From IMG/VR virus record IMGVR_UViG_3300023202_000205, positions 96,001-160,000 of that record: a stretch of 64,000 nt of DNA; one strand, given 5' to 3'. A program made the translations under genes and the position numbers. Under the pieces are notes generated by a model. The model ran no database searches. It saw only the letters and a list, made by a program, of their open reading frames with translations, and was not told the origin of the DNA. Positions 10,960-64,000 of this stretch are shown one piece after another. The DNA is from a virus. Position 1 is the stretch's first letter, and each line of letters starts with the position of its first letter.

Positions 10960-11937
10960 CTAGTCCTCGTGATCAGCCTCCGCTGCCTTGGCAACGGTAA
11001 GCAGTTCGGTGATGAGTTCGAGCTTCTGCTTGTGGGCCTTCTTCAGGTAGGCGGGGGTACGGCGATCAGAGCGCTTGCGCAGGTCGGCGAGCATGTCAAA
11101 GGTGCCACTACCCATCGTTTGGGCCAACACACCTCCGATACCGTCTGCCTTACTGAGCAGATCAGCCGCGTAGGGCAACAATGTGAGAATCAGTGAGGTC
11201 ACGTCGTCTCGGAACATCTGCAGACGTCCTTCGATAGCATCTGCCAGCTCAGCATCTCCTTCTCCAGCTAAGGCTCGCGCAAGTAGCTCCTTGAGCTCAT
11301 CAGAGGTCTCCCACGCGAAAGCTTGGTACCTGCGCTGGCCTGTAACGACCCCTATCGAAGTAAGCCACCCCTGAAGGGTACGCGCCGTCTCAAGGGCGTG
11401 CACGACGGCAGGCTGCTTGCGTGCCTCGACCTGCGCACGATAGACAGCCATAGCCCGCTCCTTGTCCATCGCGCGTGCTACGGCGGCAAAGAAGTCACCA
11501 CTGATTGTATTATCAACTCCCCGCTTGGTTGCCTGCTTCTTAACAACCAACCGCCCCTTCTGGGCAAGCATCCAACCACAGCCCTCGGGAACCTCATCAG
11601 CTGCATTGACGACACCGGGCGCTGTGACGTACCAGAACATGTGACTATTGTCCATGAACCACGCGTTCTTATGGGGATTGTTGATTTCGCTCAAGAAATC
11701 ACTACGGCTGACCTTGACCTCAAAGGCCTCACGATGGATACCGTCACTTGGCCACATGCTGAATACCATAGCGTCGATCCACGTCGACTTGTGTGCAAAC
11801 CCTGTCGCCGGCGCTACCTGTTCGACGAAGACGTAGCGCTTCGAGTTGCCGTTGCCGGTCTTGTCGTAGCGCTCGCGCAGGAGGTCGATGACCTCCTCGG
11901 CCGTCCACTTATGCTTCTTGGCTTTGGCCATTTGCAC
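10960..11937 (-). CDS. MmcB-like PD-(D/E)xK nuclease domain protein
   Basis: IDAM...AFEVKVSRSDFLSE...FWYVTAPGVV...PEGCG. Confidence 0.75.
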   Translation of the reverse strand: MQMAKAKKHKWTAEEVIDLLRERYDKTGNGNSKRYVFVEQVAPATGFAHKSTWIDAMVFSMWPSDGIHREAFEVKVSRSDFLSEINNPHKNAWFMDNSHMFWYVTAPGVVNAADEVPEGCGWMLAQKGRLVVKKQATKRGVDNTISGDFFAAVARAMDKERAMAVYRAQVEARKQPAVVHALETARTLQGWLTSIGVVTGQRRYQAFAWETSDELKELLARALAGEGDAELADAIEGRLQMFRDDVTSLILTLLPYAADLLSKADGIGGVLAQTMGSGTFDMLADLRKRSDRRTPAYLKKAHKQKLELITELLTVAKAAEADHED

Positions 11938-12253
11938 CCTCTCTCTTGAGCTCGCCCAGGATCCGCTTGGCGATCGATGTTGGGTTGGCGTTCACGCCAT
12001 GCGTCCCAATCGCTGATTTCACGCCATTGGCAATAGCTGCCAAGCTGAATGGCCCTGTCAGACACCTGACGGCCGCCTTAGCTGCTTCTTTGGTCAACTG
12101 TCTCGGGCCCGAGAATCTACAGTTCGGGCACTCCAACTGCCAGGTAGCAGGGTTCACCGGGTGGTTCAGTATCAGGTCAAAGGTCAGCGGGAACCCGTGC
12201 GCGTTGAAGGCATGCGTGACCATATCAGCGTTGCAGTGCGGGCATTTCATCAC
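11909..12253 (-). CDS. Lar-like zinc-ribbon protein
   Basis: CPHC...CPNC followed by xxxKEAAKAA. Confidence 0.5.
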   Translation of the reverse strand: MMKCPHCNADMVTHAFNAHGFPLTFDLILNHPVNPATWQLECPNCRFSGPRQLTKEAAKAAVRCLTGPFSLAAIANGVKSAIGTHGVNANPTSIAKRILGELKREGANGQSQEA

Positions 12254-15219
12254 CTATGATGCTCCATATTCGTGATCATCTCTGCTTCCTTATCTCTGAA
12301 TGAGATGCCCATCACGAACCACCACTGAGGCCCTCCCCGTTCGATCTGCTCAGGCAGGAGTCCGAGATCCCACAGCGCGCTGATCAAGTGTGGCGTGTCG
12401 TTGATGTGATTCAGCATTTCTTGTTGGGTTTGCTCATCCATCCTAGTCTTCCTCTTCCAAAGGAGGGTGACATATAATCTGTCGAGAGAAAGCGTCAGCC
12501 TTTTTGATGACCGCCTTGGCCCGGTCGGCTAGCCGACCATCCTTGTTCATCGCAAAAGCGACGGTGCTCTCCTTCGAGCCGCTGGACTCCAGCTTACTCA
12601 ACTGGCTCCGGGCGTTGCTTTCGATCCGCTTATGCAGGAATCCCTGCTCAATCCGGTCGCGAATCTTCTGCACCTCTTCCTGCCGTCTTTTGGTGTCAGA
12701 CATGTGCATTTCCTTGTGTTAGGGCGTAATAAACCCCGTCTCGCCGGTGGTGAGTGCGATGCTGTCCTGTCGGAAGTCGGCAGCCGCCCGACGAAGACCT
12801 TCACGCAGCTGATGCAACTCGGCTGCATGGATCTCGACGACGAAGCAAGCATTCTGCCAAACTGCGTCGGGTATCGAATACCCTGAGAAGTGGATCTGCC
12901 CCAGCTCTCTCAGCACGGTATGCACGCGCCGGCAGAACAGCGCCCAATCGTGCTGGCCGAGCTTGTCGTCGGTGTTCCCAACCTGGATGACGGCGGTCAG
13001 CATCACGGAACCTCCATCACTTGGTCCGGCCGCACCAGATAGGTCCACAGCCGCGGAGGCTGCACCCAATCCTCACCTTCTTCGCCCGGCTCGCCACAAT
13101 ACCCCTGCCCGCTATCGAGCAGGAAGCGGACTTGTCCATCGTCGCAGGTCACGTATTGGCCGAAGTGCGCCTCGTAGAACAGCGCCGGCGAGCCATCGGC
13201 CTTCCGGTGGTTGAGTTTGGTGACAATGCTCAATCCGAGCACGGCACTATCGCCCCAACGGCCGTTATCTGGAAAGGTGTCGGGATTGTCTTCGTCGAAG
13301 ACTACCCACTGCGGAATGGCGCTGGCGGCAAGCAGATCGTCAAGCACAGGGCCAGGATCCTCGCCAGCGTCGAGAAACGCATTAAGAGTATCAACGGGTT
13401 TGGCAAGCTCTGGACTGGTCATGGATTAACTCCTGTTTCGTCAATGTTCTGTAAGGCACCTTCGGCGATGTTGGCCAGCTGATACGCCAGGTCACCCTGT
13501 TCTAATGTGAGGTTGTCGTGACACACACTGTGGATCTTACCCAACGTATCGAGCGCGCCCTTGAGACCGGCCAATGCTCGTGACAACGGATGCTCCGGGC
13601 ATGTCTTGATGTGTTCGGCCAGCGCCTCGGCAGGCACCTGCTCATCACCAGGCCCGTAGCGGTGGCCACAGTAGACGCAGTTGATGTAGAGCTTGGTCTG
13701 CAGGTCGTTGACCCACTTGCGCAGGTCACGCACGCGCTTCACGAGGTCGGACAAGCGCTGCAAGCCGAAGTGCGGGTCGTCCTCGTCGTACTTGCCGTCG
13801 AGCGCCTCCTCGAAGCGCATACAGGCGCCTTCGACGCCGGTGTCATTACCACGCCACCACCTTGGGTCGGTCTCGTCGTAGATCTCGTCGTCGGCCCACT
13901 GCTTGTAGCGTTCGAGCTCGGCCTCGGCTTCATAAGCACGAGACGCTGGGACCATCGGTATCTCCTGCATGATCTTACCGATCTTCAGAGGTGGCTCATC
14001 TGGCGGCCGCGGCAGGTCCGGATCAAGTGCATGCGCCGCCCACTTCTGCATCCACTGCGCTGTCGGGTCCTCGTTGCGGCCAGCGCCACGGATCTTCTCC
14101 AACGCCTCGGTGACATGGATGTGCGGCTTGTGCGGCGTAATCGAACTCGGCACCGCGGGCAAATGTCTGAGTGGGTTGTCCGCCGGTGGTAGTTGAGCAT
14201 TCCGCTCCAGCGCCTGCTCTCCAAGCTCAGAAAGATATGCCATATCACGTTGCAGGCCGGGGTTTCTGCTCATGGCCTCCCGCACGTCCTCTAAGGCCTT
14301 CTGCAGCTCAGGCCCGGAGGCCCTGGCGGCGAGCGCAGCGTCTTCGATCGACTGCGGCCAAACCTGGAAGCCGTGATCGATGAACCACTTTATGACCTGC
14401 AGGTTGGCGACATTGTCGCCCATGTAGTCGATGACTTCGCCAACGCGGATCTCGTAGTGGTAATAGTCCACTTCGCGGTCCATGGACTCGACGGCCACCT
14501 TGAAATGCAGGTGCTCCTTCCGCATGGCGCCGGGGTCGGCCGCGTAGAGGTACATGCCATACTCGGGGTGGTAGCTGACCTTATCGCCATGGTCGTCATC
14601 ATCGTCGTCTTCGTCGGCGAGCACGATGCCGCTGAAGTCGAAGGCGCCGGCGGCCTGGCAGATCTCGAGCAACTCGTCGATCTCGTTTGGAGTGAGTTGG
14701 GTGACGCTAGTTCGCATAAGGATGTTCCCTCTGGGAGATCGGACTGGGTAAGTCACCTCCATTTGGTGTTGCGCGTTCCTTGGGAGTCGCCTCCCTTATT
14801 GTCCCACCCATGGTTGCGGCCTCGGTAAGATCATCTACACGGATCTCTCGACTACCGACCTTGACAACATAGCTCATAGTTCTTGCTCCTTTGGATTCTC
14901 ATGGTCCGTCACCGCTGACCCAGGCGGTAGCTCACCAAAAAGACGCTCAGCAAGATAGCGGATATTTGTTCGGATCCTCCGCTTCAACCTGCGACCATTC
15001 TCCGTAAGCTCCTCCTCCGGTTGGATACCGTAGGTCGTTACCAAGAATGTAATCTCACCCCACATCTCTTGCTCTTCGCTTTCAGTCATGGCGCTCCTTC
15101 AACAACGACTGACGTCGTCTCCGACGCTCCCTCGCTAACTTGGTGTATAAATACCAAGTAGTGGGTGCTCGCTTTGTTACCTTGATCCTGTGAGCTTTCA
15201 TAGCCCCCTCGTAGTAAAA

Positions 15220-48335: not shown

Positions 48336-51300
48336 CTACGTAGCAGAAGTAACGTAGAGGCTCCTGTACTCCTCCATGTCTTTCTCCTTTTCTGGGTCGT
48401 AACCCTTGTCACTCCAACGATGTGGGAAAATCTCCACATCGACCCCTAGGTAGTGCTCGGTGCCCGGTAGCTTATTTTCGTACCCCATACAACTATAGAT
48501 CAACGATAGCGCTTTGGGTACGTCCTCATACTTGATCTCGAATAAGAAGGCGTCGTGAACGGGTAGGAGTATTTCCATACCCGGAGCAGCCCCCTCTCTC
48601 CGCATATCTCGGAGCTTCCGATGCAACATGACTCCCGCTTGAGCAAGTAGGTCGGCAACCGCTCCTTGAATCGGGCTATTCTTGGCTTCGCGTCTAACAG
48701 CCGCCTGATCCCACTCGCTCATCTGGTTAGCGCCTTGGAAGTAACGCCGCCTATTAAACGCGTTCTCTATGTATTCCTGCTTAACGGCTTTGTCGCTATT
48801 TTTGACAAGCCATTCCCAGGCCTCAGGAAAAGACTTGGCCAACCCATTGATAATCGCCTGGGTATCTTCCGGGCTAACAGGGTCAGAGACCACCTTATTG
48901 ATCTCCCGGGCTAAGGCTGCCGCACCCCTTCCGTACATAACGCCAAAGTTCACCGACTTGGCTGCAATGCGGAGAGCACTGTACTTCTTTTTGATATTTG
49001 ATGACCATGCGTCGTAAGTTGCTTTGTCGCCAGAATCTATAGCGGCAATGGCCGCTGGTAGATCCTCCAATTCAGGGAGTTTAAAAGCGGTAGCACAGAC
49101 TTCGCTATGTAGATCTCTTCCCTTCTGAACGACTTCGATAAGGGCTGGATCACCACTTACATAGGCCCAGATGCAAAGCTCCGCAGTCGCAAAGTCAGCC
49201 TCGATTAGACAGTATCCTGGGCGGGATACGAAGCACGACGCGAATTTGGGGACGTTGATACGGTCTTCCGGCTCAATGCGGTCAGGCCCCTGGTACGGCT
49301 CTTTACCGGGTAACCAATTACCGTTTTCGTCTGTCTCCCCATCATAGGTACGTTTCTCGTAGTCCTCTATAGAGCACTCAAAAGTATGCTCAACCAGAGC
49401 CTCGAACGCAGCTGCTTCTTGCTTCTTAGGCTTGGTTTGCAAGTTCGCCTTGGAAGAAGAATACCTACCAGTGGTAGTCAACTGACTTAGGCGTGTCCTG
49501 ACCCTGCCGTCGGACCAGATATTGTTGTGGAACCCTTTACCGTCTTCCGGTACGCCAAACTCATTGGCTATCTGAGGTGCCAAATAAGTTGAAAGAAACT
49601 TGCCGATGACCGACAAGTGCTTCAACAAGCGAAGGATTCTGATATCTGAGTTATCGGAGTGAAGGAGGTCCAGCGCTTCTGCACTAACTGCCGGGGTGTG
49701 GTATTCTTCTTCGCCTTCTTCCAGGATTTGTTTCCAGTCCTTAGGGTACTTGTCCGTGTTGAACAATGGTTGCAAACCAAGCGTATGGGCACCTTCAGGA
49801 GGCGTTTTAGCATTCTTGTACTTATGCCCATAATAGAGCAGCATCTTGATCTGCTCATCGCTTGCTGGATTGAGTGACGGCCAGTTAGCTTCCTCCCTTA
49901 CCCTCACTAAAAGGTCGGAGTATACCGGCTCATAGATGTCCCTCAGTTTGGACCGCTGTTCCTCATCTATCAGAATGCCCTGTCGTTCCACCTGGTAGAG
50001 ATGCCAACTCGTTGGGGCCACGTGACGGAAGTAGAGACGTTTAAGCGTTTCGGTCTGATTGAGCTCCTTTAACAGCTCCAGCGCTACCTGCCAAGTCACG
50101 TCGGCATCGATCTGTGCATATGGAATCAATATTTCGTAAGGGATATCCCTATAACCGAACTGAAGATGCTTATTTCTTTTTCCAGTACTTTCTAGATACT
50201 CTTCCAGCTCCCTCCAAAAAGCCCCATACGAGGGGCAGTACTTACGCACCAAATGATCCAAACCCTGGCTCTCGTCACCATAGAGCAGGTGGTGAATCAG
50301 CATGGTATCAATACCGTCTTCGATGCGCTCGGTAATAGGGTACCCGTTTCGATCAAACTGCTCACAATCGACTCGTAGGTGCTGGGCGCAGATACGCCAG
50401 TTACGGTCTAGGAGTAGCTGCTGAACGGAATACCAAATCCGATGCCAGTCCTCCGGACTATGCATGACCTTACCGGCTTTGTAGAACTTCCCTTTATACT
50501 CGAAGTCATATTCGTGGAACTGCCTCCAAACGACCGCCTTCTCTTCCTTGGCAACATAGGCAGCATATCGCTTCTCGCCGCGCCTGGCGGAAGAGTCTTT
50601 CTCAGAAAAGAGTTTCCAAGGGTCTTTGTATTTTGCCTCGGCCCACTCTTCGAAGGACATCACGTCAGGGTGGGGTTTAACTACCTCGACCTGCTCGGTC
50701 AGTTGTATAAAGGCCGACGTTCTTGGTCCCCAGGATAGCTGAATAGACAGTGTCTCGTTGTGCTCTTCTCGGGCGTACCTATTACCAAACTCTGTATCGA
50801 ACGCAACCCAAGGCGGGTTTTCCTTTCGTATCTCCTGGCACAGGGCCTCTACTTCCTCGGCTGTTGCGCAGATACGATAGTCCATGCCGGAGTTTCTGCG
50901 GTGAAACAAGTCATCTTTGACTTCTCTCGCCCGAACGAGCTCTTTCCGAAATACGCTTATCTCGGCGTGCCCTCCTAGAAATGCGAAGGGGCTGTACGTT
51001 GGTATAACCTTTGTAGAGTGACCTCCGATTTCGTAATCCAGGACGTCACCCTGGTAAGTATCAAGTTTGGCTTTCCTACCGTAAAGGGCTTTTACTGCGT
51101 CAGCACCAAAGGCTATTATCACGTCTGGTTTACAATGTTCGATATCCGCCTGGAGGTAGGGCAGCCCCTCTTTTTTATGTCGCTGTTCATACTTATTTAG
51201 TGTACGGGGCAGTGTAAAACGACAAACGTGTGTTGCCACACACTCCCCTAGAAGGAGCCCCGCCCTTTTAAGCTCGTCTCTCAGGAACCTGCCTACCCTT

Positions 51301-51620
51301 GTCTTAGGATGTAGTACTGTGTGTTCTTCGACGTCCTTTGCATTAGGGCTGGGTAGAATAAGCATCACCCTAGTAGGTCGCCATCCCCGGGCTTCGCTTT
51401 TCTGGAGTTCCCGCTCCTCGGGCAGACTTGCTTTTGAGAAGGCTGTACCTACCCACCCACAGGGGAGGTGGTCAAGGTTACCCAACCGGTGTACCGGCAG
51501 GACGAGACTCTGATTGCAGACGAGCTCTATAAACTCGTCAGTATCGTAAGCCTCGTAATGTTGCTTACGGTATTCCTCGTGCTCCGGGGAGAGCACTGAC
51601 CGGGTAACTGGTGTTGGCAT
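48336..51620 (-). CDS. polA: family A DNA polymerase with N-terminal UDG-like domain and 3'-5' exonuclease
   Basis: AFDTE exo; TTTGRYSSSKANLQ; IEADFATAE motif A; RIAAKSVNFGVMYG motif B; VHDA motif C. Confidence 0.93.
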   Translation of the reverse strand: MPTPVTRSVLSPEHEEYRKQHYEAYDTDEFIELVCNQSLVLPVHRLGNLDHLPCGWVGTAFSKASLPEERELQKSEARGWRPTRVMLILPSPNAKDVEEHTVLHPKTRVGRFLRDELKRAGLLLGECVATHVCRFTLPRTLNKYEQRHKKEGLPYLQADIEHCKPDVIIAFGADAVKALYGRKAKLDTYQGDVLDYEIGGHSTKVIPTYSPFAFLGGHAEISVFRKELVRAREVKDDLFHRRNSGMDYRICATAEEVEALCQEIRKENPPWVAFDTEFGNRYAREEHNETLSIQLSWGPRTSAFIQLTEQVEVVKPHPDVMSFEEWAEAKYKDPWKLFSEKDSSARRGEKRYAAYVAKEEKAVVWRQFHEYDFEYKGKFYKAGKVMHSPEDWHRIWYSVQQLLLDRNWRICAQHLRVDCEQFDRNGYPITERIEDGIDTMLIHHLLYGDESQGLDHLVRKYCPSYGAFWRELEEYLESTGKRNKHLQFGYRDIPYEILIPYAQIDADVTWQVALELLKELNQTETLKRLYFRHVAPTSWHLYQVERQGILIDEEQRSKLRDIYEPVYSDLLVRVREEANWPSLNPASDEQIKMLLYYGHKYKNAKTPPEGAHTLGLQPLFNTDKYPKDWKQILEEGEEEYHTPAVSAEALDLLHSDNSDIRILRLLKHLSVIGKFLSTYLAPQIANEFGVPEDGKGFHNNIWSDGRVRTRLSQLTTTGRYSSSKANLQTKPKKQEAAAFEALVEHTFECSIEDYEKRTYDGETDENGNWLPGKEPYQGPDRIEPEDRINVPKFASCFVSRPGYCLIEADFATAELCIWAYVSGDPALIEVVQKGRDLHSEVCATAFKLPELEDLPAAIAAIDSGDKATYDAWSSNIKKKYSALRIAAKSVNFGVMYGRGAAALAREINKVVSDPVSPEDTQAIINGLAKSFPEAWEWLVKNSDKAVKQEYIENAFNRRRYFQGANQMSEWDQAAVRREAKNSPIQGAVADLLAQAGVMLHRKLRDMRREGAAPGMEILLPVHDAFLFEIKYEDVPKALSLIYSCMGYENKLPGTEHYLGVDVEIFPHRWSDKGYDPEKEKDMEEYRSLYVTSAT

Positions 51621-54193: not shown

Positions 54194-54759
54194 TGAAGGA
54201 ACTCCAGTTCTCCGGCGAAGGCCTCGTTAGCGACAGGTGTGGCCTTCAGCTCCATAATGGCGCCGTCTCTGTAACGCTTGACTATTTCAGGGAAGCCAAG
54301 CTTATTCGCCATCACAGCTCTGAAGAGTGGTGTAAGGTGTACCGTTTGATCCTCGAGGGTCTCACGGTATCCGTAGATCTTCGCCCAACGTTGAAAGCAA
54401 ATCAACTGGCTTTTATAGCGTCGTGCGGAATGAGTATCCGATACCTGGTAGGTCCTAATGGACCCGCTGATTTTCTCACTAGCAATAAGGGCGGGCCAGA
54501 ACTTACCTAGTACGGCCATACCATCCAGTTGTGCTTTGACAAACTCACCGGGCGATTGCTCTCTTAGACGACAAAGCCGGGCGGCCTTGTAAAACTTGAC
54601 GTAGTCTTTCTTGGCTATTCGTGCGGTACCGGATACGTAAGTCTTTCTCAGTTCAACAAACAGGTTCATGAGCTCTTCGGCAAGCTCTACCAACTCTGGG
54701 TCTGGTATATGGTGGCGTCCCTGGCTATCGATAATCTCGATGTGGTCGATACGTCCCAT
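54190..54759 (-). CDS. hypothetical protein (possible helicase loader)
   Basis: Coupled between two helicases; function inferred from position only. Confidence 0.55.
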   Translation of the reverse strand: MGRIDHIEIIDSQGRHHIPDPELVELAEELMNLFVELRKTYVSGTARIAKKDYVKFYKAARLCRLREQSPGEFVKAQLDGMAVLGKFWPALIASEKISGSIRTYQVSDTHSARRYKSQLICFQRWAKIYGYRETLEDQTVHLTPLFRAVMANKLGFPEIVKRYRDGAIMELKATPVANEAFAGELEFLQ

Positions 54760-56294
54760 TACCGTACCTCAACTTGAAATCCATTCTTCCTATAGACTCT
54801 TAGACGCTGCACAGACCTATACTGTAGGTTCTTGCTGAACTTGTCCATGAAATCAATGAGGAGCCCCTGCAGCTTGGAAGTCTTGTCACCTAAGCGAGAT
54901 AGACGACCAGGTACCTGCCCAGAGTCCAGTGGGCTCCCAGTACCGTCAGCTCGGACAAGTACTGCTAGGTCCCGGAAGTCGACCCCTTTCGACCAGATCT
55001 TGGTAGCGATGGCACGCTTGAGCTCATGGGTCTCGAACGCTTTACGATACGCTTCTCGCATCTTCTTAGTACAGGGCTCCTGTTCCGGTGTCATAGCCCC
55101 TCTTTTCCGCATAGCAGTTATACGGGCTGGGGAAGGCTCCCCTGTAACAATCGGGAACTCAGGAAGTAGTTGCCCTAGGGCATACGCATGCTCCGTCTTA
55201 TCTACCATGACCAGTAGTTGTTGGTCGTCGCCGATCTCTTCCTCCACCTTACGTACCGTGTACGCTATGAGGCGGTTACGATAATCGTTTAGCCAAAGAC
55301 CTAGCCGGTCAGCATCGGCCGTATTCCTCATGCCAGCCACATCGGGACCGGCCGAAGACGTAATCATCCTTACCTGCAGCTGAACAATGTTGCCGCCGGC
55401 CACGCCTTCTTGGTAGGTTACGTCAGCTATTTGCTGTCCGAAGACCGCTTCACCAAACCCCTCAGCTTTATCACTCCTGCCCTCCGGGGTAGCAGTAAAC
55501 CCGAAAATACGTGCACGACGGAACTTGTTGAACTTCTTGACGTAGTTCTCTGTCATTAGCGTGTGGCATTCATCCGCCAGTATGAGGTTCACGTCCTTGG
55601 GAGCCTTATGAAGCGACTGAGAAGTACACACAGTAACTCGACGAGTATAGCTTTTGCCCGCACCAATCCGGCCTAGCTGGCTGCCCAGATCGTACTTGAG
55701 ATCATCGTAGATGTTAGAAGCAATATCGTTGGAGTTGACTGTAATCAGGATTTCTGCGCGGGGATAGACCTTAGCTAACAGCTTGACTAGGAAGGTCTTA
55801 CCCCACCCAGTAGGGCACACGACAATCCCACCCCGGTGTGCTAGCAGTTTGGAAAACACTTCCTTCTGCCGCGACCTCCAACTGACTCCTTCGATCTGAG
55901 ATAAGTCAGGCTTCCCCAGACCGTCGTCTACAAAGTCCTCCACTGTTACTTGATACCCGTACTTATTCAAGTCAGCTAAGATACGTGGGCCATATCCTGC
56001 TAACGCACAGAAAGCAGCAGTGTCCCCTTCCTCCGTATACCAGAATAGGGGTATTTTACTGATATTACGTGTACGCACTGGGTATGTAGAACCAGTAGCT
56101 ACGTCTTCCACCCACTCAGTATCCACTGAATGCCGCGATACAGTACAAACCTCTTCGTAAAACTCGCCCAGTTCGCTGGGGAAGAGGGCAAGAGCGCGCC
56201 CCAGGTATCTTAGCTTAGCTATCATTTCGAGTAAGACTCCATCGCTAACAAGTTGAAGACAGTATGGCGATCTGTCGGCAACTCTCGCAGCCAC
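54759..56294 (-). CDS. superfamily 2 helicase (UvsW/XPB-like)
   Basis: PTGWGKT, DECH, GFTATP, KGVDF, QVPGRLSR. Confidence 0.9.
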   Translation of the reverse strand: MAARVADRSPYCLQLVSDGVLLEMIAKLRYLGRALALFPSELGEFYEEVCTVSRHSVDTEWVEDVATGSTYPVRTRNISKIPLFWYTEEGDTAAFCALAGYGPRILADLNKYGYQVTVEDFVDDGLGKPDLSQIEGVSWRSRQKEVFSKLLAHRGGIVVCPTGWGKTFLVKLLAKVYPRAEILITVNSNDIASNIYDDLKYDLGSQLGRIGAGKSYTRRVTVCTSQSLHKAPKDVNLILADECHTLMTENYVKKFNKFRRARIFGFTATPEGRSDKAEGFGEAVFGQQIADVTYQEGVAGGNIVQLQVRMITSSAGPDVAGMRNTADADRLGLWLNDYRNRLIAYTVRKVEEEIGDDQQLLVMVDKTEHAYALGQLLPEFPIVTGEPSPARITAMRKRGAMTPEQEPCTKKMREAYRKAFETHELKRAIATKIWSKGVDFRDLAVLVRADGTGSPLDSGQVPGRLSRLGDKTSKLQGLLIDFMDKFSKNLQYRSVQRLRVYRKNGFQVEVR

Positions 56295-56884
56295 TTACTG
56301 AACTGCTGGACTAGGAGCCCGGCAGCTATATTGGCTATGTGGATAGACATACGTGTCGTACAAGTTGCTTGGAAAGCCTCTTCACGATCGAACAACGTGG
56401 ACTCGTAGTAATCCCTAGAATCAGGGTCGCTGACAGAGAGGACGTGAACCGTATCTCCTGCTACCCGACTATCCAGGAATAGATTGTAGGTGCTTGTCCG
56501 GAAGAGCTGACCGCGAGTGTTGATGTTGTCGACACAGCAGAAGACGATAGGGTGCTCGTAACTCTCCGTAGGGAACCTCCTGTGCAGGCCCTTAGCTGTC
56601 GTAGCTCCATCGGAGGCAGGAAATAACTGCTGTCGTTCGATGTCCCCGAGAAGAGCTTCTACCTTAGGCACACCTATATCATCGCGCCGCCAACCTTGAG
56701 GCCCTATATTCGATTCCTCTACCGTATCATGGTCGTAAAAGGCCAGATTACGAGCCCCTGCGGAACAAAGCTGAAGCACAACCTGCCTCCCTACGGCGCC
56801 TACCCCGGCTACTGCTATCGGCAGGTTCCACAGTATATCAGGCGGGAGCAACCCCGCCTGTCTCTGGTATTGTACAGTGCTCAT
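56222..56884 (-). CDS. ThiF/E1-like ubiquitin-activating enzyme
   Basis: VAGVGAVG, YDHDTVEESN...Q, PKVEAL, CCVDN...R, LDSR, C-terminal ATCT. Confidence 0.92.
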   Translation of the reverse strand: MSTVQYQRQAGLLPPDILWNLPIAVAGVGAVGRQVVLQLCSAGARNLAFYDHDTVEESNIGPQGWRRDDIGVPKVEALLGDIERQQLFPASDGATTAKGLHRRFPTESYEHPIVFCCVDNINTRGQLFRTSTYNLFLDSRVAGDTVHVLSVSDPDSRDYYESTLFDREEAFQATCTTRMSIHIANIAAGLLVQQFSKWLRELPTDRHTVFNLLAMESYSK

Positions 56885-56889
56885 TTATT

Positions 56890-58782
56890 TTACTCACCTT
56901 TCAGGTATTCGCTGGCCGTGTAAGGCTCGTCAGTTGGATTTACGTCGATGCCGAACATCTCCAGCCGGTCGACTGCAGATAGGTCATACCCCGATGATCG
57001 TACGTAATTGACTACGTAGTCGAACACGGATGCTTTGTCCTTTTCGGCTGACTTCTTTCTGAGATCAGCGATGCCCTTTTCTATATCTTCCACCGTGTCC
57101 CCGTTCTGCAGGCATTGGTGGACTACTTGAGCGACATCGATCCATGCATCACTGATATCGGTAAAGTCGTTGATGTCATCACCCACAATTGTTTTTGGGC
57201 CTAGGATCTCATCCTCCTCGTCGTCACCAATATAGAACCCTACCGGGTTACGATCATCCTCCTCCTTCTCATCTTTACCCATGGGTGCTAGTTCGGACAT
57301 AGCCGTTTCTAACTCTGTTAGGCCGGCCGCCACCGATTCCAGAACGCTTATCTCATCGATACTAAGGTAGATCACCATATTGTCATAACAGACCCAATGG
57401 TGGAGAGTTTGTATAGGGGTATCGAAACAGTCAAAAATTGTACCAGCAACGGCCGGATCTCGACTAGATACGTAAGGAAACAATTTGTCTTCTACCTCTG
57501 AAAGAATTTCCCTATACTCGGTATCGTGTACCACAGGCTTGTCCAAGCTGAATAGCTCGTCGCTGGTGAGCACCATCGTCTTTTTATTTTTACCAACACC
57601 GGTCTCGTATTTGAAAGATACAACCTGATCTTTCCCTACAGCAGCGACGACCATATCGCACTTTTCCAACTGATCTGCCAGTTCTTGAGAAACATCTCTA
57701 AGGGTCAGAGATTCCTGAGAAGTGTTCGCTAATTCCACGAACATGTCCTCGTCCATCATCCAGAAGACGGAGTCTCTTCGAAGCGAGAATTCGGTGTCAT
57801 CCGGCGGCCTCGGAAGAGTAGGCGTGCTGTAAGGGCCACGGCTATGATCATAGGGATCAAAGCCATTAAGATAAGACAGATAGGAATCATCATCGTCCCA
57901 CATACCATACGGATCCACAATGGTGGTCTGGGGGCTGGTTTTGGAAACACCTCGACCGCCTCCACTGGGGATCCCTTGGTGGTAGACACCATAACTGTTG
58001 GGAAAATACGTGTACGTCTCTTCGACATTGTTGGCTACCTCCTCCAGCCATTCCTTGCGCACCTTCTCATCTACGGCTGGCTCGTCAAAGCTGATGACCG
58101 TCTCCGCTTCGATCGATATCACGCGCTCCGAACCACCTGGGTCCCTAAACCGATAGTCACAGTGGTACCTGCCATCAGAGCTGAGGATGAACATGACACC
58201 CCAAGAAGCGCTACCGAAATTATCCTTACCATAGAATGTATCCAGATCTTTCTGACTGGGAGAGGGATCGAAGCCAGGGTGGGTATGGATCCAAATACGC
58301 ATGAACTGGTCGACCTTGAGGCGGTACTCACCTTCAGGGTCGGCCATGTCGGCTACTAGCTCCGACAAGGAGCCAGGGAGGATCTTCGTGTGAACACTGC
58401 TTACCTCCTGCGGGGGCACTAGAATGTCCACAACCAACATATAGTCGTCAGGATCGGTAACTGCGAGACCGCCGATCTCCGTGTTAACGCAATCCCGCAT
58501 GAAGTGAAGCTTAGCCCACGCAAAAGGCGTAAAACGCAGCTTCAAACGAATACTGTCGCTGACACAGATGGGGGATGGGGTCACGGGCTGGATGGCCCTT
58601 TTCTGAGTAACTCCTTTCTGCGCGTCAGTGGTTGTCTGGGGAACACTCGGTAACCGTGACTTCGTCACTGTCTTCGTGCCCTTCTTCGCAGTGCTCTTCT
58701 TCGTAGGCCCGGAGGTCTTGTGCTGCTCTTTCGTCTCCTGCTTGAGCGCGGCGCCGCCATTGTCGCACGATTTCCTGGTCAT
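56890..58782 (-). CDS. JAB/MPN+ metallopeptidase (deubiquitinase-like) with long acidic C-terminal extension
   Basis: TEIGG, WIHTHP...PSQKD (E...HxH...S..D); GAGGAGG RBS. Confidence 0.88.
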   Translation of the reverse strand: MTRKSCDNGGAALKQETKEQHKTSGPTKKSTAKKGTKTVTKSRLPSVPQTTTDAQKGVTQKRAIQPVTPSPICVSDSIRLKLRFTPFAWAKLHFMRDCVNTEIGGLAVTDPDDYMLVVDILVPPQEVSSVHTKILPGSLSELVADMADPEGEYRLKVDQFMRIWIHTHPGFDPSPSQKDLDTFYGKDNFGSASWGVMFILSSDGRYHCDYRFRDPGGSERVISIEAETVISFDEPAVDEKVRKEWLEEVANNVEETYTYFPNSYGVYHQGIPSGGGRGVSKTSPQTTIVDPYGMWDDDDSYLSYLNGFDPYDHSRGPYSTPTLPRPPDDTEFSLRRDSVFWMMDEDMFVELANTSQESLTLRDVSQELADQLEKCDMVVAAVGKDQVVSFKYETGVGKNKKTMVLTSDELFSLDKPVVHDTEYREILSEVEDKLFPYVSSRDPAVAGTIFDCFDTPIQTLHHWVCYDNMVIYLSIDEISVLESVAAGLTELETAMSELAPMGKDEKEEDDRNPVGFYIGDDEEDEILGPKTIVGDDINDFTDISDAWIDVAQVVHQCLQNGDTVEDIEKGIADLRKKSAEKDKASVFDYVVNYVRSSGYDLSAVDRLEMFGIDVNPTDEPYTASEYLKGE

Positions 58783-60625
58783 GAATTTCCTCCTCTACGC
58801 CAGTGGCGAGGGTGATTTCTAAATCGCCGGCGAGTGAATTCCACCAGCGCAATTTGTCTCGTAACAGCGCGAGCGAATAAGCTTGCGTCTGACGCTCCAG
58901 GTTTCTGGTAACGGTTTTCACTACTTCAAACGCAGTTTCTGTTGTAAAGCCCCCGTCAAAGAACGATAGAAGGCGTATGAAGTCGCTATCGAATGCGGGC
59001 ATATAGTGGGCCTTTAGCTCGTGTAGCCAGAACTCCATGTACGCGATGTCGGACCGAAAAACAGACCCAAAACCAAGTCCCTCTGGGTCGCACTCAGGGC
59101 AGATAAAAGTGTTCGTGTATCGGCAAAGGGAGCGATTATCTATCCTGACTTCAGCACCACAGGTGCACTCTTCCTTGTAAAGTATATCGGGCGTTATTCG
59201 TAACGGAGATCTCGTCATGTTACGAGGATCACATACGTCTGGACGGCGCCGTATGTGTCTTTGAAGACGCTCATCCTCCCCTATACCAACAGTAGTTGTA
59301 CCGTCTTCTTCGTCCCTGCAACATGCTTGACACCCGTAGTCACGGTACCCAAGCACAACCTTGTTCTCGTCGATCGCTTCGCCTCTGTACTGCCTCGTGC
59401 AGACAGGGCATTGGTAGACACCCTCCTCTGCAGCTGCTATCTCAGCGCGGAAACGTGGTGTACACTCCGCACAGGCTACTGCTGTTAGAGAAGACCCATT
59501 ACGCTCTGGAACAGGAATATCATACCATCGAGGGGGGTAGACTTGTCCACAACATACATTACATACCGGAAGCGAGGCAGGGTGGTAGTACTCTTGGTCA
59601 ACCGAGTTAAAAACAGCACATCGCTGGTGAAGTACTCCAAAGGCGGTATGCACCGCGTCGCCTTCTATTTGTTCCTGACATACCTCACAGGTGTTATCGG
59701 GCCTTCCGACGCCTCCCCCATACCAGTTACAGATAGATACAAAAGGACCGTCAGGGTTGTAAGTAGCCAGCACCCTTTCTGTAAGAAATATCGCATCCGA
59801 TATGAGACCATTTTTAAGAGCGTTTTTAACACCTTCGAAAGCATTTCCGAAGCATACATTACCTGAGTTCACATGTGGGTGTATAACATGAGAGTCGTCG
59901 TACGACCTGTTAGGTGGCCCCACAGAAGTTACCTTGATGCAATCAGGGTAGGAGTCTTCTTCACGTTGGCTATCTGAGACTAGTCTTCTGAGCTTCTCCA
60001 GTAGTATATGTATGTAAAACCCATCAAAAGATACCTCTACCCCATCTTCTGAGAAGGTAACTGGGGGTGTGCGTACGACTATTCGCTTCTGTTCGATGCA
60101 AGCGAATTCATGTGCCGCCCCTTCTTCACACTCTAGCCGCTCGTCCCCCATAGCGAAGGCAATACGTCCCCGAAGAGTGCTATTAAGCAGCAGTCGTATT
60201 TCCCTTTGACAAAAATCATCTGTAAGAAAGCAGTCACGGCGAGACATGGTTTCCGCGTAACGCAGTGCCTCCTGCTCTACATCCTCCTGAGAGGCCACGA
60301 GTCTGAGCTCTTCCAGAGCCTCTGTAGCTTCTTGTAAAGTTGTCCTCAGCGCCCCTATTTTGCGCAAAGTAGCGTCATGCTGAGCAGTAGGCCATATTTT
60401 ATCGGCGCCGTCACTATCAAAGAAACTGCACAAGGTAAGAGCATGCAGTTGGGTCAGTCTTGTACTACTACGTAGTATGACTGCCTTCTCCTTGAAATAC
60501 TTAGTGACTTTTTGTCGAGACTGAGATTCTAAAATTTCCTCTAAGATTTTAGTAAATATGCCAACCCGCTCTTCAGAGGGTGCTGGGAGACCCTCTATGT
60601 TCACTGTGTTTCCAACCTGCTCCAT
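58625..60625 (-). CDS. prokaryotic E2 conjugating enzyme fused to multiple CxxC Zn-ribbon repeats
   Basis: HPHVNSGNVCFGN catalytic-Cys motif, VLATYNPDGPF..ICNW, then many CxxC/HxxC pairs. Confidence 0.82.
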   Translation of the reverse strand: MEQVGNTVNIEGLPAPSEERVGIFTKILEEILESQSRQKVTKYFKEKAVILRSSTRLTQLHALTLCSFFDSDGADKIWPTAQHDATLRKIGALRTTLQEATEALEELRLVASQEDVEQEALRYAETMSRRDCFLTDDFCQREIRLLLNSTLRGRIAFAMGDERLECEEGAAHEFACIEQKRIVVRTPPVTFSEDGVEVSFDGFYIHILLEKLRRLVSDSQREEDSYPDCIKVTSVGPPNRSYDDSHVIHPHVNSGNVCFGNAFEGVKNALKNGLISDAIFLTERVLATYNPDGPFVSICNWYGGGVGRPDNTCEVCQEQIEGDAVHTAFGVLHQRCAVFNSVDQEYYHPASLPVCNVCCGQVYPPRWYDIPVPERNGSSLTAVACAECTPRFRAEIAAAEEGVYQCPVCTRQYRGEAIDENKVVLGYRDYGCQACCRDEEDGTTTVGIGEDERLQRHIRRRPDVCDPRNMTRSPLRITPDILYKEECTCGAEVRIDNRSLCRYTNTFICPECDPEGLGFGSVFRSDIAYMEFWLHELKAHYMPAFDSDFIRLLSFFDGGFTTETAFEVVKTVTRNLERQTQAYSLALLRDKLRWWNSLAGDLEITLATGVEEEIHDQEIVRQWRRRAQAGDERAAQDLRAYEEEHCEEGHEDSDEVTVTECSPDNH

Positions 60626-60662
60626 AAGTCCCCCACTAAGGGCTTGCGCCCCTGTGTTAGCG

Positions 60663-60697
60663 CAAAAAGAACCCCCGCCAGGCTATCCTGGCGAGGG
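60663..60697 (-). terminator. intrinsic terminator after Ubl1
   Basis: cgccagg/cctggcg stem followed by TTCTTTTT on the minus strand. Confidence 0.7.
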
Positions 60698-60733
60698 CTC
60701 CATCGTTACGGTATGTTACTCGAATCTATGCGG

Positions 60734-61003
60734 TCAGTTACCCTCCGGATTGGACGGGGTGACGGTGACCTTGTCATTGTCCTCCAGTTCGTCGTCCAGG
60801 TGGGCCGTGTGGCCGTTGCGGCGCACTTCCCGGCCGTGATCGCCGTCGACGACGTCTCCGACACGGGACCCACGGGGGACTTGCCGGTAGCCGGCGTCAC
60901 CGGTATCGGAGCGCACAACCAGCACGCGAACGGGACCGCCGCCCTGGTTGTCGATCTCCACGTCCTGTCCGGGGGTGACGCGGATGTTGGTCTGGTCGCT
61001 CAT
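60734..61003 (-). CDS. ubiquitin-like beta-grasp protein Ubl1
   Basis: VPRGSRVGDVV...VRRNG...LEDNDKVTVTP, ends EG-N. Confidence 0.75.
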   Translation of the reverse strand: MSDQTNIRVTPGQDVEIDNQGGGPVRVLVVRSDTGDAGYRQVPRGSRVGDVVDGDHGREVRRNGHTAHLDDELEDNDKVTVTPSNPEGN

Positions 61004-61006
61004 AGT

Positions 61007-63367
61007 CTATTCTCTCTGAATGGGATCTAGGGTAATTACGTGATCGAAAAATCCCACAAGGGATTCTTCATGGTCGACCATAATGACTTGTCTACCAGTA
61101 GCTCCGGCTGCCTCCTTCAGCTTCAAAATCAGATTTTGAAGATGCACCACATTGTCCTTATCCAAGTGGTTGGAGGGCTCATCGAGTACGAGTAGGCCTA
61201 CTTGTCGGGCAAACGTATCCGCCATGGCCGAGCGGAACGATGTCGAAGCTATTACCTTTTGTCCACCAGAAAGTCGGGCAGCGGCGAAAGGTGGACTATC
61301 TTCCTTACTAGCAACAAAAGCGAGCTCTTCATCCAAGTGCATGGAGAAGTTCGCCTCCCATATCGACAAGTAGTGTGCTATTCGGCGGTTAAGAACGGCT
61401 GCGTATTCCCTCATCAATAACGAGGGGAGCCCGCTAACGTGGAGGACCTCGCGTGCCCTCTTGCAGATCTTGACCCATTCTGCGTCCACAGACTCGACTG
61501 CTAGCGTATCCGCCATACGCTTTTTCGTCGCAACATATTGTTCCTGTTGTACTTCGAACGAGGTGATCTCCCTATCGAGCTGCTGTCGCGATTGTGTTCG
61601 CGCAAACAAAGTCTCGACTTGTTTCTTCGCCTCCTTGATTTCTGCTTCGTTAGGCATCTCGGCTACTGCCCCGAGTTCCTCACGCGCGTTCCTAGCTGAC
61701 TGAAGCTGTTTCTCCAGCTTCTCTACAATGGCCACTTTGCCTTTGACAGTAGTGTCCTGCTCGGCCATCGCTATACTAGTACGCTCATAACTGGAGACGA
61801 GTTTCTGGAGACGTTCCACTTCCTCTTCGTTGAGTGGATTAGGAACTGATGTCTGGAGCTGCCCTTCCAGCATCTCTTTCCGGTTTTGAAGGCTCTCCAG
61901 GGAGCTGGTGTGGGACGTCAAGGCATCCCGCTGAGAACGAACCTCGTTTAGCCGATTCTGGACCTTTTCCTTGCTTCGCTGAACGGCCTCTATGGCATTT
62001 GAACGACTCTCATCAATTAAATGAGTGAATCGGTCGATTTCTGCCGTCAACCGCTGGCCCTCTTCTTTCCAGCGCTGATTGAGTGAGGCCTTCTGCTTCT
62101 CAAGCTGGTCTAGCTTCTCTTGCGATTCTTTCTGGAACCGCTCAGCCACCTCTTGTCCGCAGGTAGGACACTGGCCACTTTCAAAGATTGCCAGCTGCTC
62201 GGAAGTCTCCGAGATCTGACGCTCCAGGTCTCTGGCCTCTTGTTGGGCCTCCCTTTTAAAGGTCTGGAGCTGCTCGGAGAGCGTGTCCCGCTTTTCATGC
62301 AACTCCTTATCCTCTGGCAGAGAAGGCAGTTCCGACTTTCCTGTTAACTGGAGCTCTCGAGTACGCAGCGTATCTGAGAGCTTCGAGATGGTTTCTTCCA
62401 GCTCGATAGAGTCACCTTCTGGACGCTCTCCCAGCTGGTCTAGTGACGCTTTAACCGTCGCCAGCTGGCTTCTCAGCTCCTCTGTGGCTTGAACGGCCCT
62501 CTTGTCGGCCTCGTGCTGGGCAAGGAGTGATCGTGCGTCCTCAGCAGCGGATTTGACGTCTCCAGCCATCTTACGCAGGGAATCCCTGCGCTCAGTCAGC
62601 TTGTCTAGCTCCTCCACTGCTTCGGTAAGCTCGGTGGCAACCTCCTCGATTCGTTCGTCAGCTTGTCTGATGGCAACGTTGTTCTGAGACTGCTTGTGCA
62701 GGCGGTTCAGCAGATCTTCGTAGGGCTGTAGTTCGGAAATCTCAGCCTCTACCTCGGTCAGTTGCTTGTTCAACTTAGCAAGGCGGTCCTCATTCTCCTC
62801 AATCGACTCCTGGATCATTTTGATCTGCTGATCTAAACCAGGAGTGACGCTGTAACGAGAGGCCTCGTTTCTGAGATGCTTTTCTGCCTCAGAAGCCTGC
62901 TGCAGTCCCACAGTCTCCTGAATCTCGCGGAGACGCTGGGTGTTGGTACTGAACAAGATTGAGTCGATCTTACCCTGCGGTACGAAAACATTGTTGAGCA
63001 AGGCGTCCACCGTGGTGGAGCAGAGCGACTCGATGAACTCAGTGATTTCGGTCTTGCGAGTTAACGTCTCCCCCGGCGTGACCAGTTTCTGGCTATTCCG
63101 CTTTCCAAGCGTTCTCGTAATCGAGTAGGACGAGTCACCGTGCTCGAAATCAACGGTGACCGTCGCAGTGTCTGCTCCCCACATCACGTTATCCACTTTG
63201 GAACCTTCGGCAGCTATTTGGCCAGTAATACCGAAGCGGATCATATCGAGGACCGTAGATTTGCCTGAGCCATTCTTACCCAGGATGCCGCAGATGCCGG
63301 CACAGAACTCCCCTTCAAAACGCTCATGGCAGCCGAAGTTTTCAGCGAAAACGCGCGTGATCAGCAT
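61007..63367 (-). CDS. sbcC: SbcC/Rad50/gp46-like SMC-family ATPase
   Basis: GKNGSGKS, coiled coils, CPTC zinc hook, LSGGQ signature, LDEP, H-loop. Confidence 0.92.
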   Translation of the reverse strand: MLITRVFAENFGCHERFEGEFCAGICGILGKNGSGKSTVLDMIRFGITGQIAAEGSKVDNVMWGADTATVTVDFEHGDSSYSITRTLGKRNSQKLVTPGETLTRKTEITEFIESLCSTTVDALLNNVFVPQGKIDSILFSTNTQRLREIQETVGLQQASEAEKHLRNEASRYSVTPGLDQQIKMIQESIEENEDRLAKLNKQLTEVEAEISELQPYEDLLNRLHKQSQNNVAIRQADERIEEVATELTEAVEELDKLTERRDSLRKMAGDVKSAAEDARSLLAQHEADKRAVQATEELRSQLATVKASLDQLGERPEGDSIELEETISKLSDTLRTRELQLTGKSELPSLPEDKELHEKRDTLSEQLQTFKREAQQEARDLERQISETSEQLAIFESGQCPTCGQEVAERFQKESQEKLDQLEKQKASLNQRWKEEGQRLTAEIDRFTHLIDESRSNAIEAVQRSKEKVQNRLNEVRSQRDALTSHTSSLESLQNRKEMLEGQLQTSVPNPLNEEEVERLQKLVSSYERTSIAMAEQDTTVKGKVAIVEKLEKQLQSARNAREELGAVAEMPNEAEIKEAKKQVETLFARTQSRQQLDREITSFEVQQEQYVATKKRMADTLAVESVDAEWVKICKRAREVLHVSGLPSLLMREYAAVLNRRIAHYLSIWEANFSMHLDEELAFVASKEDSPPFAAARLSGGQKVIASTSFRSAMADTFARQVGLLVLDEPSNHLDKDNVVHLQNLILKLKEAAGATGRQVIMVDHEESLVGFFDHVITLDPIQRE

Positions 63368-63370
63368 GGG

Positions 63371-63631
63371 TTACCCGTTCCGGACGAAGAGGCTCCGGAT
63401 CTTACGGGCCAGCCGGACGACGACGTTGCCCTTGATCTTACGGACGAGCAGGAGGGTCTGCCCATCCTGAACGACCTCGCCGAGCTGCACTTCCCGCCCA
63501 TCGATGCGGGCTTCCTGCCCAGTCGGGTCGAGGCCGGCGGTCCCAAGCACGTCGTTGACGGTGGAATTTTCGGGAACCATATATTCCTCGATTCTCCCAG
63601 GTATACGGCCAGCGCGAACGGTGATTGACAT
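63371..63631 (-). CDS. ubiquitin-like beta-grasp protein Ubl2
   Basis: VPENSTVNDVL...ARIDG...VQDGQTLLLVRKIKG plus an 18-aa tail. Confidence 0.8.
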   Translation of the reverse strand: MSITVRAGRIPGRIEEYMVPENSTVNDVLGTAGLDPTGQEARIDGREVQLGEVVQDGQTLLLVRKIKGNVVVRLARKIRSLFVRNG

Positions 63632-63679
63632 AGTACTATTACTCCTGCCCTAATGGGCTATGGGTGGTGAACAAGTGAT

Positions 63680-64000
63680 TCAGACCAGGGAAGCTTCCCT
63701 GGTCATGGTTGTGGGTGGGTTGGCGTAGAAAATGTTCTCGGTCTCTGGCAGGTCCCCTCCGGCCCGAGACCACTCGAACCAGCGGATAAAGGACCAGACT
63801 GCGAAAGCAGTCACCAAGGCGGCCGTAGGGCCAACTGTGGTACGAGCTCCACACAGAGAGTCGCTGGCTTCCTCGTCCTCGCAAAGCGTACTCTCCCAGA
63901 GGCGTATCTGAGCCGGCATGGTTGGCTGTACTGCGTAGACCCTCCCCTCGTCTCGACCCATACGGGTCTCGATCATTAAGGAGATCCCTGGCTTGTACTT
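63680..64000 (-). CDS. second ThiF/E1-like enzyme (C-terminal part, 5' truncated by window)
   Basis: IETRMG...GRVY...WESTL...SLCGA...VGPTAALVTAFAV matches the E1 C-terminal pattern of 56222-56884. Confidence 0.75.
   Translation of the reverse strand, partial: KYKPGISLMIETRMGRDEGRVYAVQPTMPAQIRLWESTLCEDEEASDSLCGARTTVGPTAALVTAFAVWSFIRWFEWSRAGGDLPETENIFYANPPTTMTREASLV

Follow-up and report, generated by a model that had tools for sequence, protein, structure and literature searches.

Two probable ubiquitin-like conjugation cascades of different lineages flank SbcC in the replication region of an uncultured bacteriophage

Why would a bacteriophage carry the components of a ubiquitin-like protein (Ubl) conjugation system among its replication genes? 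The question is raised by a 64,000-nucleotide stretch of viral DNA, hereafter the window, which corresponds to bases 96001-160000 of the IMG/VR record IMGVR_UViG_3300023202_000205 (whole record 179,364 bp). Operons combining an E1, an E2, a JAB peptidase and a Ubl are in themselves an already known kind, as described in the parts available to us of Iyer 2006 (PMC1779556) and of the papers on Bil (PMC10557695), CBASS (PMC11601603) and Bub (PMC11601596), and according to the same partial sources bacterial Ubl conjugation has so far been shown for anti-phage defence (CBASS Cap2, Bil), Bub being suspected likewise (PMC11601603, PMC11601596). An initial sequence-only reading of the window had proposed that here the virus itself owns such a system and that its catalytic motifs are intact. 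The first of these points agrees with the origin of the DNA, since the source is a virus record, that of an uncultured bacteriophage estimated by CheckV to be 96% complete; the second is taken up below on the basis of what can be observed directly at this locus and its relatives, namely gene content, conserved catalytic residues, predicted folds and the conservation of the gene cassette.

According to the list of open reading frames (ORFs), every gene between 40 and 64 kb of the window lies on the minus strand, and all genes named in the sequence-only reading were recovered there, each in its place. In transcription order the locus reads SbcD-[E2b-JABb-E1b-Ubl2]-SbcC-[Ubl1-E2a-JABa-E1a]-helicase, so that two full four-gene modules flank SbcC, and module b parts SbcD from SbcC. 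Module a is contained whole in the window (56222-61003) and module b enters it with its E1b-Ubl2 tail only. The SbcC gene itself (61007-63367, minus strand) encodes a 786-aa SbcC/Rad50-type ATPase with a CxxC zinc hook, matching PHROG 77 (4e-48), Pfam AAA_23, SMC_N and SbcC_Walker_B, as well as Rad50 models at 2e-39, under their cut-offs. Its partner SbcD lies four genes upstream (genome 162630-163724, outside the window; 364 aa, Metallophos 7.4e-8 and Mre11/SbcD models). The intergenic gaps at Ubl2/SbcC, SbcC/Ubl1 and JABa/E1a measure 3-5 nt. Following module a, a superfamily 2 (SF2) helicase (54759-56294, minus strand; ResIII 4.6e-16, PHROG 16 DNA helicase 5e-46) opens a replisome block that continues with a 189-aa ORF, DnaB-like and primase-like genes, a polymerase gene combining uracil-DNA glycosylase (UDG), exonuclease and PolA parts, a 375-aa ORF without family and a UvsX-like recombinase.

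The assignment of the two putative E2 proteins is central to any claim of conjugation. E2b (genome 161167-162618, outside the window; 483 aa) has 22 relatives besides itself, and in 21 aligned sequences P390, H391, G396, C399 and G401 are invariant. The AlphaFold model built from the family alignment reached a mean pLDDT (predicted local distance difference test) of 87.2, and in a Foldseek search against the PDB 45 of the 47 matches listed were E2-containing entries, with a probability up to 0.99 and none at E<=1e-3; in BFVD the top structural relatives were 'uncharacterized protein' entries from uncultured phages (1.1e-5 and 2.1e-4). In this model Cys399 occupies the loop that connects the beta-meander to the following helix (from residue 403), eight positions past the invariant His. 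Classical E2s carry an HPN motif, and we take the placement of Cys399 to be the layout of the classical HPN...Cys site. The UBC-like part of E2b is accompanied by an N-terminal domain, for which no fold or family was found (residues 1-215), and a long helix.

E2a (58625-60625, minus strand; 666 aa) shows a helical N-terminal region, a predicted UBC-like core at about residues 160-307 with the motif HPH-x6-Cys258, a zinc region composed of Cys pairs, and a C-terminal region that ends in an acidic tail. An exhaustive HMMER scan yielded 554 relatives at E<=1e-3, with residues ~170-330 common to all, whereas a word-based homologue search recovered only E2a itself. H249, P250, H251, C258 and G260 are invariant in 36 aligned sequences, and HPH..C remains invariant in 77. 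None of the 32 relatives scanned bears an E2 family annotation. The two families are related to each other, as their profiles align in hhalign at 92.8% and E 3.9e-7 across 104 columns with the His...Cys motifs in register, and in the VIA search with E2a all 50 rows among the matches listed were E2s. Eight invariant Cys/His pairs follow the core (residues 313-512), and the profile of this zinc region matches RING, PHD, LIM and TFIIH-p44 fingers (1e-5 to 1e-2); no fold or family was found for the C-terminal part. We conclude that E2a and E2b are UBC-fold E2s with large accessory regions, an assignment that rests on predictions and in which the structural scores are middling. Two E2 families are hereby defined whose classical-looking active sites go unseen by curated libraries, and in one of the two the E2 is fused to RING/PHD-like zinc fingers. 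Four pattern matches to E2a in viral contigs were also considered, and none was confirmed.

Both E1s belong to the ThiF-type adenylating enzymes. E1a (56222-56884, minus strand; 220 aa) matches Pfam ThiF at 1.5e-16. The window edge cuts the gene for E1b, of which the C-terminal 106 residues lie at 63680-64000 (minus strand); the full gene extends to genome position 160378, and the complete 232-aa protein matches Pfam ThiF at 2.5e-19 and the PADLOC CBASS E1-E2 models at 8.4e-16. The two proteins share 27% identity (E 3e-18). Across 19 E1s of these cassettes, G28, G30 and G33 of the GxGxxG motif, D52, D54, N60, Q64, K75, the Mg-binding D113, R118, R139 and a single Cys, C176, are invariant, and E1a keeps every invariant column of the alignment. 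The invariant Cys presumably corresponds to the site of the reactive Cys184 of ThiF. Models of the ThiF/MoeB type score best for both E1s, and all matches to equivalogs are far under their cut-offs.

Reading of the translations likewise revealed a complete JAMM motif, a Glu followed by HxH-x7-S-x2-D, in both JABa and JABb. JABa (56890-58782, minus strand; 630 aa) has a Lys/Thr-rich N-terminus, a JAMM peptidase domain at about residues 80-215 and a C-terminal region of 400 residues for which no fold or family was found; it matches Prok-JAB at 0.0031, under the Pfam cut-off, and its orthologues in the related loci L013 and L015 at 5e-50 and 1e-30. JABb (genome 160384-161133, outside the window; 249 aa) matches the PADLOC JAB model at 3.6e-6 and is 25% identical to JABa (E 6e-7). 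Hence, in E1, E2 and JAB the residues conserved family-wide are kept, in line with the intact catalytic motifs that had been read from the window. The ORFs of E2a and JABa overlap by 158 nt (58625-58782) in different frames, the acidic tail of the former facing the Lys/Thr-rich N-terminus of the latter. Either both ends are real or a frameshift joins the genes; the start of JABa, Met-Thr-Arg/Lys followed by a K/T-rich stretch, is also present in L013.

The Ubl partners are the smallest and most variable components. Ubl2 (63371-63631, minus strand; 86 aa) consists of a 68-residue ThiS-like beta-grasp unit ending in Lys-Gly-Asn and a 17-residue remnant of a second unit. Alone it has no family match in Pfam, PHROGs, PADLOC or NCBIfam; its 14 relatives stand beside E1b-type genes, and two of them match Pfam ThiS/SAMP2 at 3e-6 to 9e-6. 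Across the 15 rows of the family alignment, G68 never varies and N69 is conserved in at least 90%. Two-unit tandems make up seven of these 15 proteins, with Gly-Asn or Gly-Ala closing each of their units. The residues encoded by the final 17 codons of Ubl2 (63371-63424) align to the opening strand of unit two in its di-Ubl relatives, which gives the extension the look of a vestige of a second repeat since lost. These proteins define a Ubl family with polyubiquitin-like tandem precursors and a putative Gly-Asn cut site. Ubl1 (60734-61003, minus strand; 89 aa) is a putative, divergent beta-grasp unit whose identity is supported by its position and its C-terminal motif, Thr-Pro-x-x-Pro-Glu-Gly-Asn. 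Three-unit poly-Ubl proteins (MoaD 6.8e-7) take this position in L013 and L015, where it lies between SbcC and the orthologue of E2a, and in Planctomycetota it is taken by a 72-84-aa protein ending in Thr-Pro-x-Lys-Ile-Glu-Gly-Ala at nine of the ten loci with upstream DNA, five of these having been recognized by hidden Markov model (HMM) and four by eye.

How widely is this gene set conserved? A search with the E2b family retrieved 8 viral and 18 metagenome contigs. After merging of near-identical loci (L005/L006/L023, L015/L016, L027/L028) 22 remained, of which two ending at E2 were left out, giving 20 informative loci. E2, JAB and E1 occur together in 19 of these, the exception being L020, a 5.5-kb contig without E1, and a Ubl2-type gene is recognizable in 13. 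The recurrence of the same four-gene cassette in the same gene order on many unrelated contigs is far beyond chance. At six loci the cassette contains two or three E2b-type paralogues whose N-terminal parts differ (L004 9329-12298; L009 8996-14475; L017 8729-12225; L019 4659-12595; L020 297-4585; L027 9152-11820), a difference that is suggestive of diversified target choice.

Among GenBank phages the E2b family is not represented, as tblastn against 50,697 records gave no match, and relatives of E1b, with an annotation as thiamine-biosynthesis protein, occur in 46 records. Flavobacterium phage FpV4 (KT876724.1, locus L030 4695-6627), from a cultured phage family, encodes a JAB (local HMM 4e-9) and, next to it downstream, a ThiF-type E1 (3e-39) that its record likewise assigns to thiamine biosynthesis. 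The two genes upstream of this pair resemble E2 and Ubl by eye, a resemblance that found no support in hhalign (E 0.43, 0.58 and 0.18), so that we credit FpV4 with the JAB-E1 pair only.

The neighbourhoods of the remaining cassettes are varied and include an Apyc1-like metallo-beta-lactamase, ThyX, Thg1, DNA methylases, ribonucleotide reductase, exonucleases and TnpB. The Apyc1-like gene (anti-Pycsar; L004 6281-7123, 3.8e-24) precedes the cassette of a 207-kb phage by 2 kb and adjoins Thg1, RlaP and Hsp20 genes. In L011 a protein with an MIB/HERC2-like domain is encoded directly after E1 (12590-13699; 4.7e-8, at 33.3 versus 33.5 bits just short of the Pfam cut-off). This domain occurs in eukaryotic E3 ligases.

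The second module has a different distribution. Short E2a-type proteins are, according to Atlas clusters, which we used as a lead only, mostly from Planctomycetota, and a genome scan returned 11 loci (L031-L041), ten from Planctomycetota metagenome-assembled genomes and one on a short contig labelled Verrucomicrobiota. All eight Planctomycetota loci with enough downstream DNA carry E2(Zn)-JAB-E1, arranged as in module a. The E2-zinc-finger cassette of Planctomycetota may reportedly be covered already by Burroughs 2011, on RING fingers and prokaryotic ubiquitin systems. Among the neighbours at the seven loci scanned are an integrase, DUF932, DUF2958, a lysozyme-like protein and an AAA ATPase, a gene content which suggests that these cassettes may reside in mobile elements. 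The Ubl-E2(zinc finger)-JAB-E1 cassettes of L031-L041 are located on bacterial chromosomes, in some cases two to a genome (L038/L039, L034/L041).

In a maximum-likelihood tree of 28 E1s, two clades were split at 100/100 support, the first comprising E1a, its L013 orthologue and seven Planctomycetota E1s, and the second comprising E1b and 18 phage/metagenome E1s. Modules a and b are therefore not the product of a recent duplication. The complete conjugation system announced by the sequence-only reading thus held up as to its completeness and required revision as to its architecture, in that the locus contains not one system with spare parts but two modules of different lineages. The grouping of module a might also hint that the phage host is a planctomycete.

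Taken together, these results make it probable that the phage encodes two complete, probably active Ubl conjugation cascades of different lineages. We propose a working scheme in which every chemical step, and likewise the direction of transfer, is modelled on what is known of the respective enzyme families. The JAB metalloprotease would trim the Ubl precursor directly past the conserved Gly, thereby shedding the Asn, the 17-residue remnant of Ubl2 or the next poly-Ubl unit; since such precursors need a cut after Gly, this is the expected job of the peptidase of the same operon. The minimal ThiF-type E1 would then use ATP to adenylate the Gly of the Ubl, which would move, possibly via the single invariant E1 Cys, onto the invariant Cys of the UBC-fold E2. 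Given the large accessory regions, an N-terminal domain and helix in E2b and zinc fingers and a C-terminal domain in E2a, the E2 would probably act as its own E3, transferring the Ubl to lysines of targets chosen by these regions, and JAB could reverse the mark.

Several observations weigh against this interpretation. Both E1s are minimal (220-232 aa), lacking a separate Cys domain or ubiquitin-fold domain, and E1a sits on a long branch with its exact place unsure. Ubl1 by itself is weakly recognizable, with BLASTP against Ubl2 giving E 0.025 and a local HMM of the Ubl2 family E 1.6e-5. Neither E2a nor E2b has a family match in Pfam, PHROGs, PADLOC or NCBIfam, and sequence-profile searches of the PDB with both E2 families returned no E2 but only zinc fingers and coiled coils. 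Moreover, the evidence assembled here points to no substrate.

What, then, may the cascades be used for? We lean, tentatively, towards a conflict role in the replication phase, that is the tagging of host defence or takeover targets or of rival-phage proteins, based on the mobility of the cassette across unrelated phage contexts, the multiplied E2s and the mobile-element setting in bacteria. CBASS and Bil, the characterized bacterial relatives, act in phage-host conflict according to the portion of PMC11601603 available to us, which argues in the same direction. An action of the two cascades on SbcCD or replisome proteins of the phage itself, to which the tight embedding and the survival of one rearrangement point, appears distinctly less probable, and some other role accounts for the remainder.

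The alternative that survives best goes further in this second direction and holds that the cascades serve to modify the phage's own repair and replication proteins, in the first place SbcC/SbcD, the phage Mre11-Rad50, thereby tuning end processing and recombination-dependent replication. Its basis is the layout itself, with module b inserted between the SbcD and SbcC genes, module a filling the interval from SbcC to the SF2 helicase, and gaps of 3-5 nt, and this layout is seen again in two related loci, L013 (module b - SbcC - poly-Ubl - E2a - JABa - E1a) and L015/L016 (SbcD - module b - SbcC - poly-Ubl - E2a - JABa). In L014, SbcD is followed by 4.7 kb of other genes and then by SbcC - module b - SF2 helicase - 189-aa homologue - DnaB - primase - PolA; here the b-type module lies on the opposite side of SbcC, which indicates that adjacency to SbcC outlived one rearrangement, and it directly precedes the helicase-DnaB-primase-PolA genes. 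In addition, L010 and L011 have DnaB and primase 4-5 kb downstream of the cassette, and the JAB-E1 pair of FpV4 adjoins toprim and UDG genes.

Linkage to SbcCD or the replisome is nevertheless confined to these three of the 20 informative loci, which form the near clade of this phage, and is absent from the other 17, so that common descent may account for it. Of four phage records at greater distance, two gave no SbcC match and two have the gene ~19 and ~30 kb away from the cassette, and the Planctomycetota cassettes are without replisome neighbours. Furthermore, two or three E2 paralogues per cassette look like diversifying targets rather than one fixed partner. The earlier expectation that the system would stay linked to replication genes across phages, which we ran as a test, is therefore borne out for close relatives, including the rearranged one, and fails beyond them. 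On balance we regard modification of the phage's own proteins as the purpose of the system as rather unlikely, while noting that an SbcD/SbcC pair parted by a conjugation module provides a concrete candidate substrate.

A second alternative is sulfur-carrier chemistry, in which E1 and Ubl would, like ThiS-ThiF or MoaD-MoeB, make a thiocarboxylate for a thiolated cofactor, tRNA or DNA base, JAB would merely uncap the Ubl and no protein would be tagged. The best-scoring models of the E1s, those of the ThiF/MoeB type, and the matches of Ubl relatives to ThiS, MoaD and SAMP2 are compatible with such chemistry, and sets of E1, JAB and ThiS-like genes for sulfur assimilation are known from the available part of Iyer 2006 (PMC1779556). 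Against it stands the predicted UBC-fold protein with its invariant Cys, which is part of the cassette at nearly every locus, and poly-Ubl precursors would be ill-suited to a catalytic sulfur carrier. Moreover, the scores on ThiF/MoeB equivalogs stay far under cut-off, and the scanned neighbours (the window, the genome end, and seven viral and seven bacterial loci) included no genes for a sulfurtransferase or rhodanese, or for thiamine or molybdopterin. We therefore consider sulfur transfer improbable.

That the modules are relics or decoys, either decaying copies from a host or another phage or sets in which only JAB acts (e.g. by stripping host Ubl or Cap2-type conjugates), would fit the grouping of module a with Planctomycetota cassettes, the long branch of E1a, the strong divergence of Ubl1 and the truncated second unit of Ubl2, and is most improbable in view of the retention of all family-invariant catalytic residues in both modules, the eight intact long ORFs in a tight operon and the two-module layout retained in L013 and L015.

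Coming back to the favoured interpretation of two probable conjugation cascades, its boldest version would be a phage 'ubiquitin code', in which two orthogonal, self-targeting E2/E3 cascades, expressed together with the replisome, tag either SbcCD, so as to control recombination-dependent replication, or host-defence and rival-phage proteins, so as to disable them, as a mirror image of Bil and CBASS; we rate this as unlikely in such specific form. If true, the cassette family in large phages and Planctomycetota would represent a major unrecognized branch of prokaryotic ubiquitin-like signalling, and a complete virus-owned version would imply reversed roles, with phages, like eukaryotic viruses, using protein tagging in infection.

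Among known systems, the closest counterpart is Bil (BilABCD; PMC10557695, PMC11601603), which in the parts of these papers available to us has separate genes for Ubl, UBC-type E2, JAB deubiquitinase and ThiF-type E1, and Ubls of one to three beta-grasp units. Bil is, in these same parts, bacterial and protective against phage, whereas the present system is virus-owned and located among phage replication genes; compared with Bil as described there, it also differs by the large E2 accessory domains, the Gly-Asn end of the Ubl and the presence of two modules in one operon with SbcCD. E2a, E2b, Ubl1 and Ubl2 match no Pfam, NCBIfam or PADLOC family at E<=0.01, in libraries whose inclusion of Bil models is unconfirmed. 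Both E2s have a His two positions from the Pro upstream of the Cys, in a classical-like manner, in contrast to the class 6d E2 of Iyer, which according to the available part of the text is without that His (PMC1779556).

Type II CBASS shows the likeness already indicated by the best E1 matches on the PADLOC E1-E2 (Cap2) models (8.4e-16) and that of JABb on the CBASS JAB models (3.6e-6), to which an NCBIfam match to '6A-MBL cap2_3' can be added (5.7e-12, under cut-off). In contrast to CBASS, E1 and E2 are here separate genes accompanied by a dedicated Ubl, and the Cap2 match spans only the nucleotide-binding part of E1; library scans detected no CD-NTase, nucleotidyltransferase or effector gene among the operon proteins and their neighbours. 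Bub (6E/DUF6527; PMC11601596), as far as the accessible part of that paper describes it, is likewise a bacterial operon of E1, E2, Ubl and peptidase in which the Ubl is freed from a precursor, but it employs oxyester intermediates, a catalytic Cys being absent, and a Ser-His protease, whereas the families described here have an invariant Cys in E2 and E1 and a JAMM peptidase.

With eukaryotic and giant-virus ubiquitin and the archaeal Caldiarchaeum E1/E2/RING operon (PMC5654768), the present proteins share a predicted UBC core and an HPN-like motif that precedes the Cys by 6-7 residues. Also in common are poly-Ubl precursors arranged head to tail and extended past the last Gly, and RING/PHD-type zinc fingers beside the E2 core, while the minimal ThiF-type E1, the ThiS-like Ubl sequence, the fusion of the zinc fingers to E2 and the bacterial host set the system apart. 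The ThiS-ThiF and MoaD-MoeB pairs resemble it in E1 fold and Ubl fold and provide the top curated-model matches, and differ from it in that here E2 and JAB are present, the Ubl end is to be trimmed and biosynthetic neighbours are lacking.

PRTRC cassettes are ParB-related, ThiF-related cassettes of plasmids and integrative and conjugative elements. E1b matches the corresponding model TIGR03736 PRTRC_ThiF at 3.2e-10, and the neighbours of a-type cassettes in Planctomycetota are mobile-element-like (DUF932, DUF2958, integrase); the score of 39.8 bits stands against a cut-off of 144.75, and no other PRTRC model matched any module protein. Among phages, the TAPI (Ubl) and TAPK (JAB and NlpC) proteins of Lambda/T1 offer a phage Ubl with C-terminal Gly and an adjoining JAB, which, by the available part of PMC1779556, belong to a tail module without E1/E2, in contrast to the DNA-metabolism block with both E1 and E2 described here. 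Our literature searches retrieved no description of a complete phage-encoded cascade, of these two E2 families or of Gly-Asn poly-Ubl precursors, in agreement with the sequence-only reading, which knew of no characterized phage equivalent; in a survey of jumbo phages (PMC7824862), JAB, ThiF, Ubl and E1-like have no occurrences and 'ubiquitin' has two, both unrelated. While operons of the E1-E2-JAB-Ubl kind are thus already known, a complete phage-encoded cascade appears to be new, in that we could not find one in the literature searched.

Further features of the region concern its replication genes and an additional set of phage genes. The family A DNA polymerase (48336-51620) carries an N-terminal domain of the uracil-DNA-glycosylase superfamily (2.6e-9), followed by 3'-5' exonuclease and polymerase domains. 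Between 50000 and 64000, promoter-like sites are fewer than in shuffled sequences (6 versus 9.9), and terminator-like sites number 19 versus 10.9 in shuffles, those compared with ORF coordinates being located inside coding regions. Finally, the phage encodes CRISPR components outside the window (genome 165047-172846; L003 5047-5655, 6465-8345 on the minus strand, 8428-8488 and 11925-12846). These consist of a 626-aa Cas12f/Cas12u1-like gene (PADLOC 9e-71), a lone repeat adjoining the cas gene, and two arrays whose 36-nt repeat recurs every 71-76 nt, with ~9 and 13-14 copies, array 1 starting 1.3 kb upstream of SbcD.

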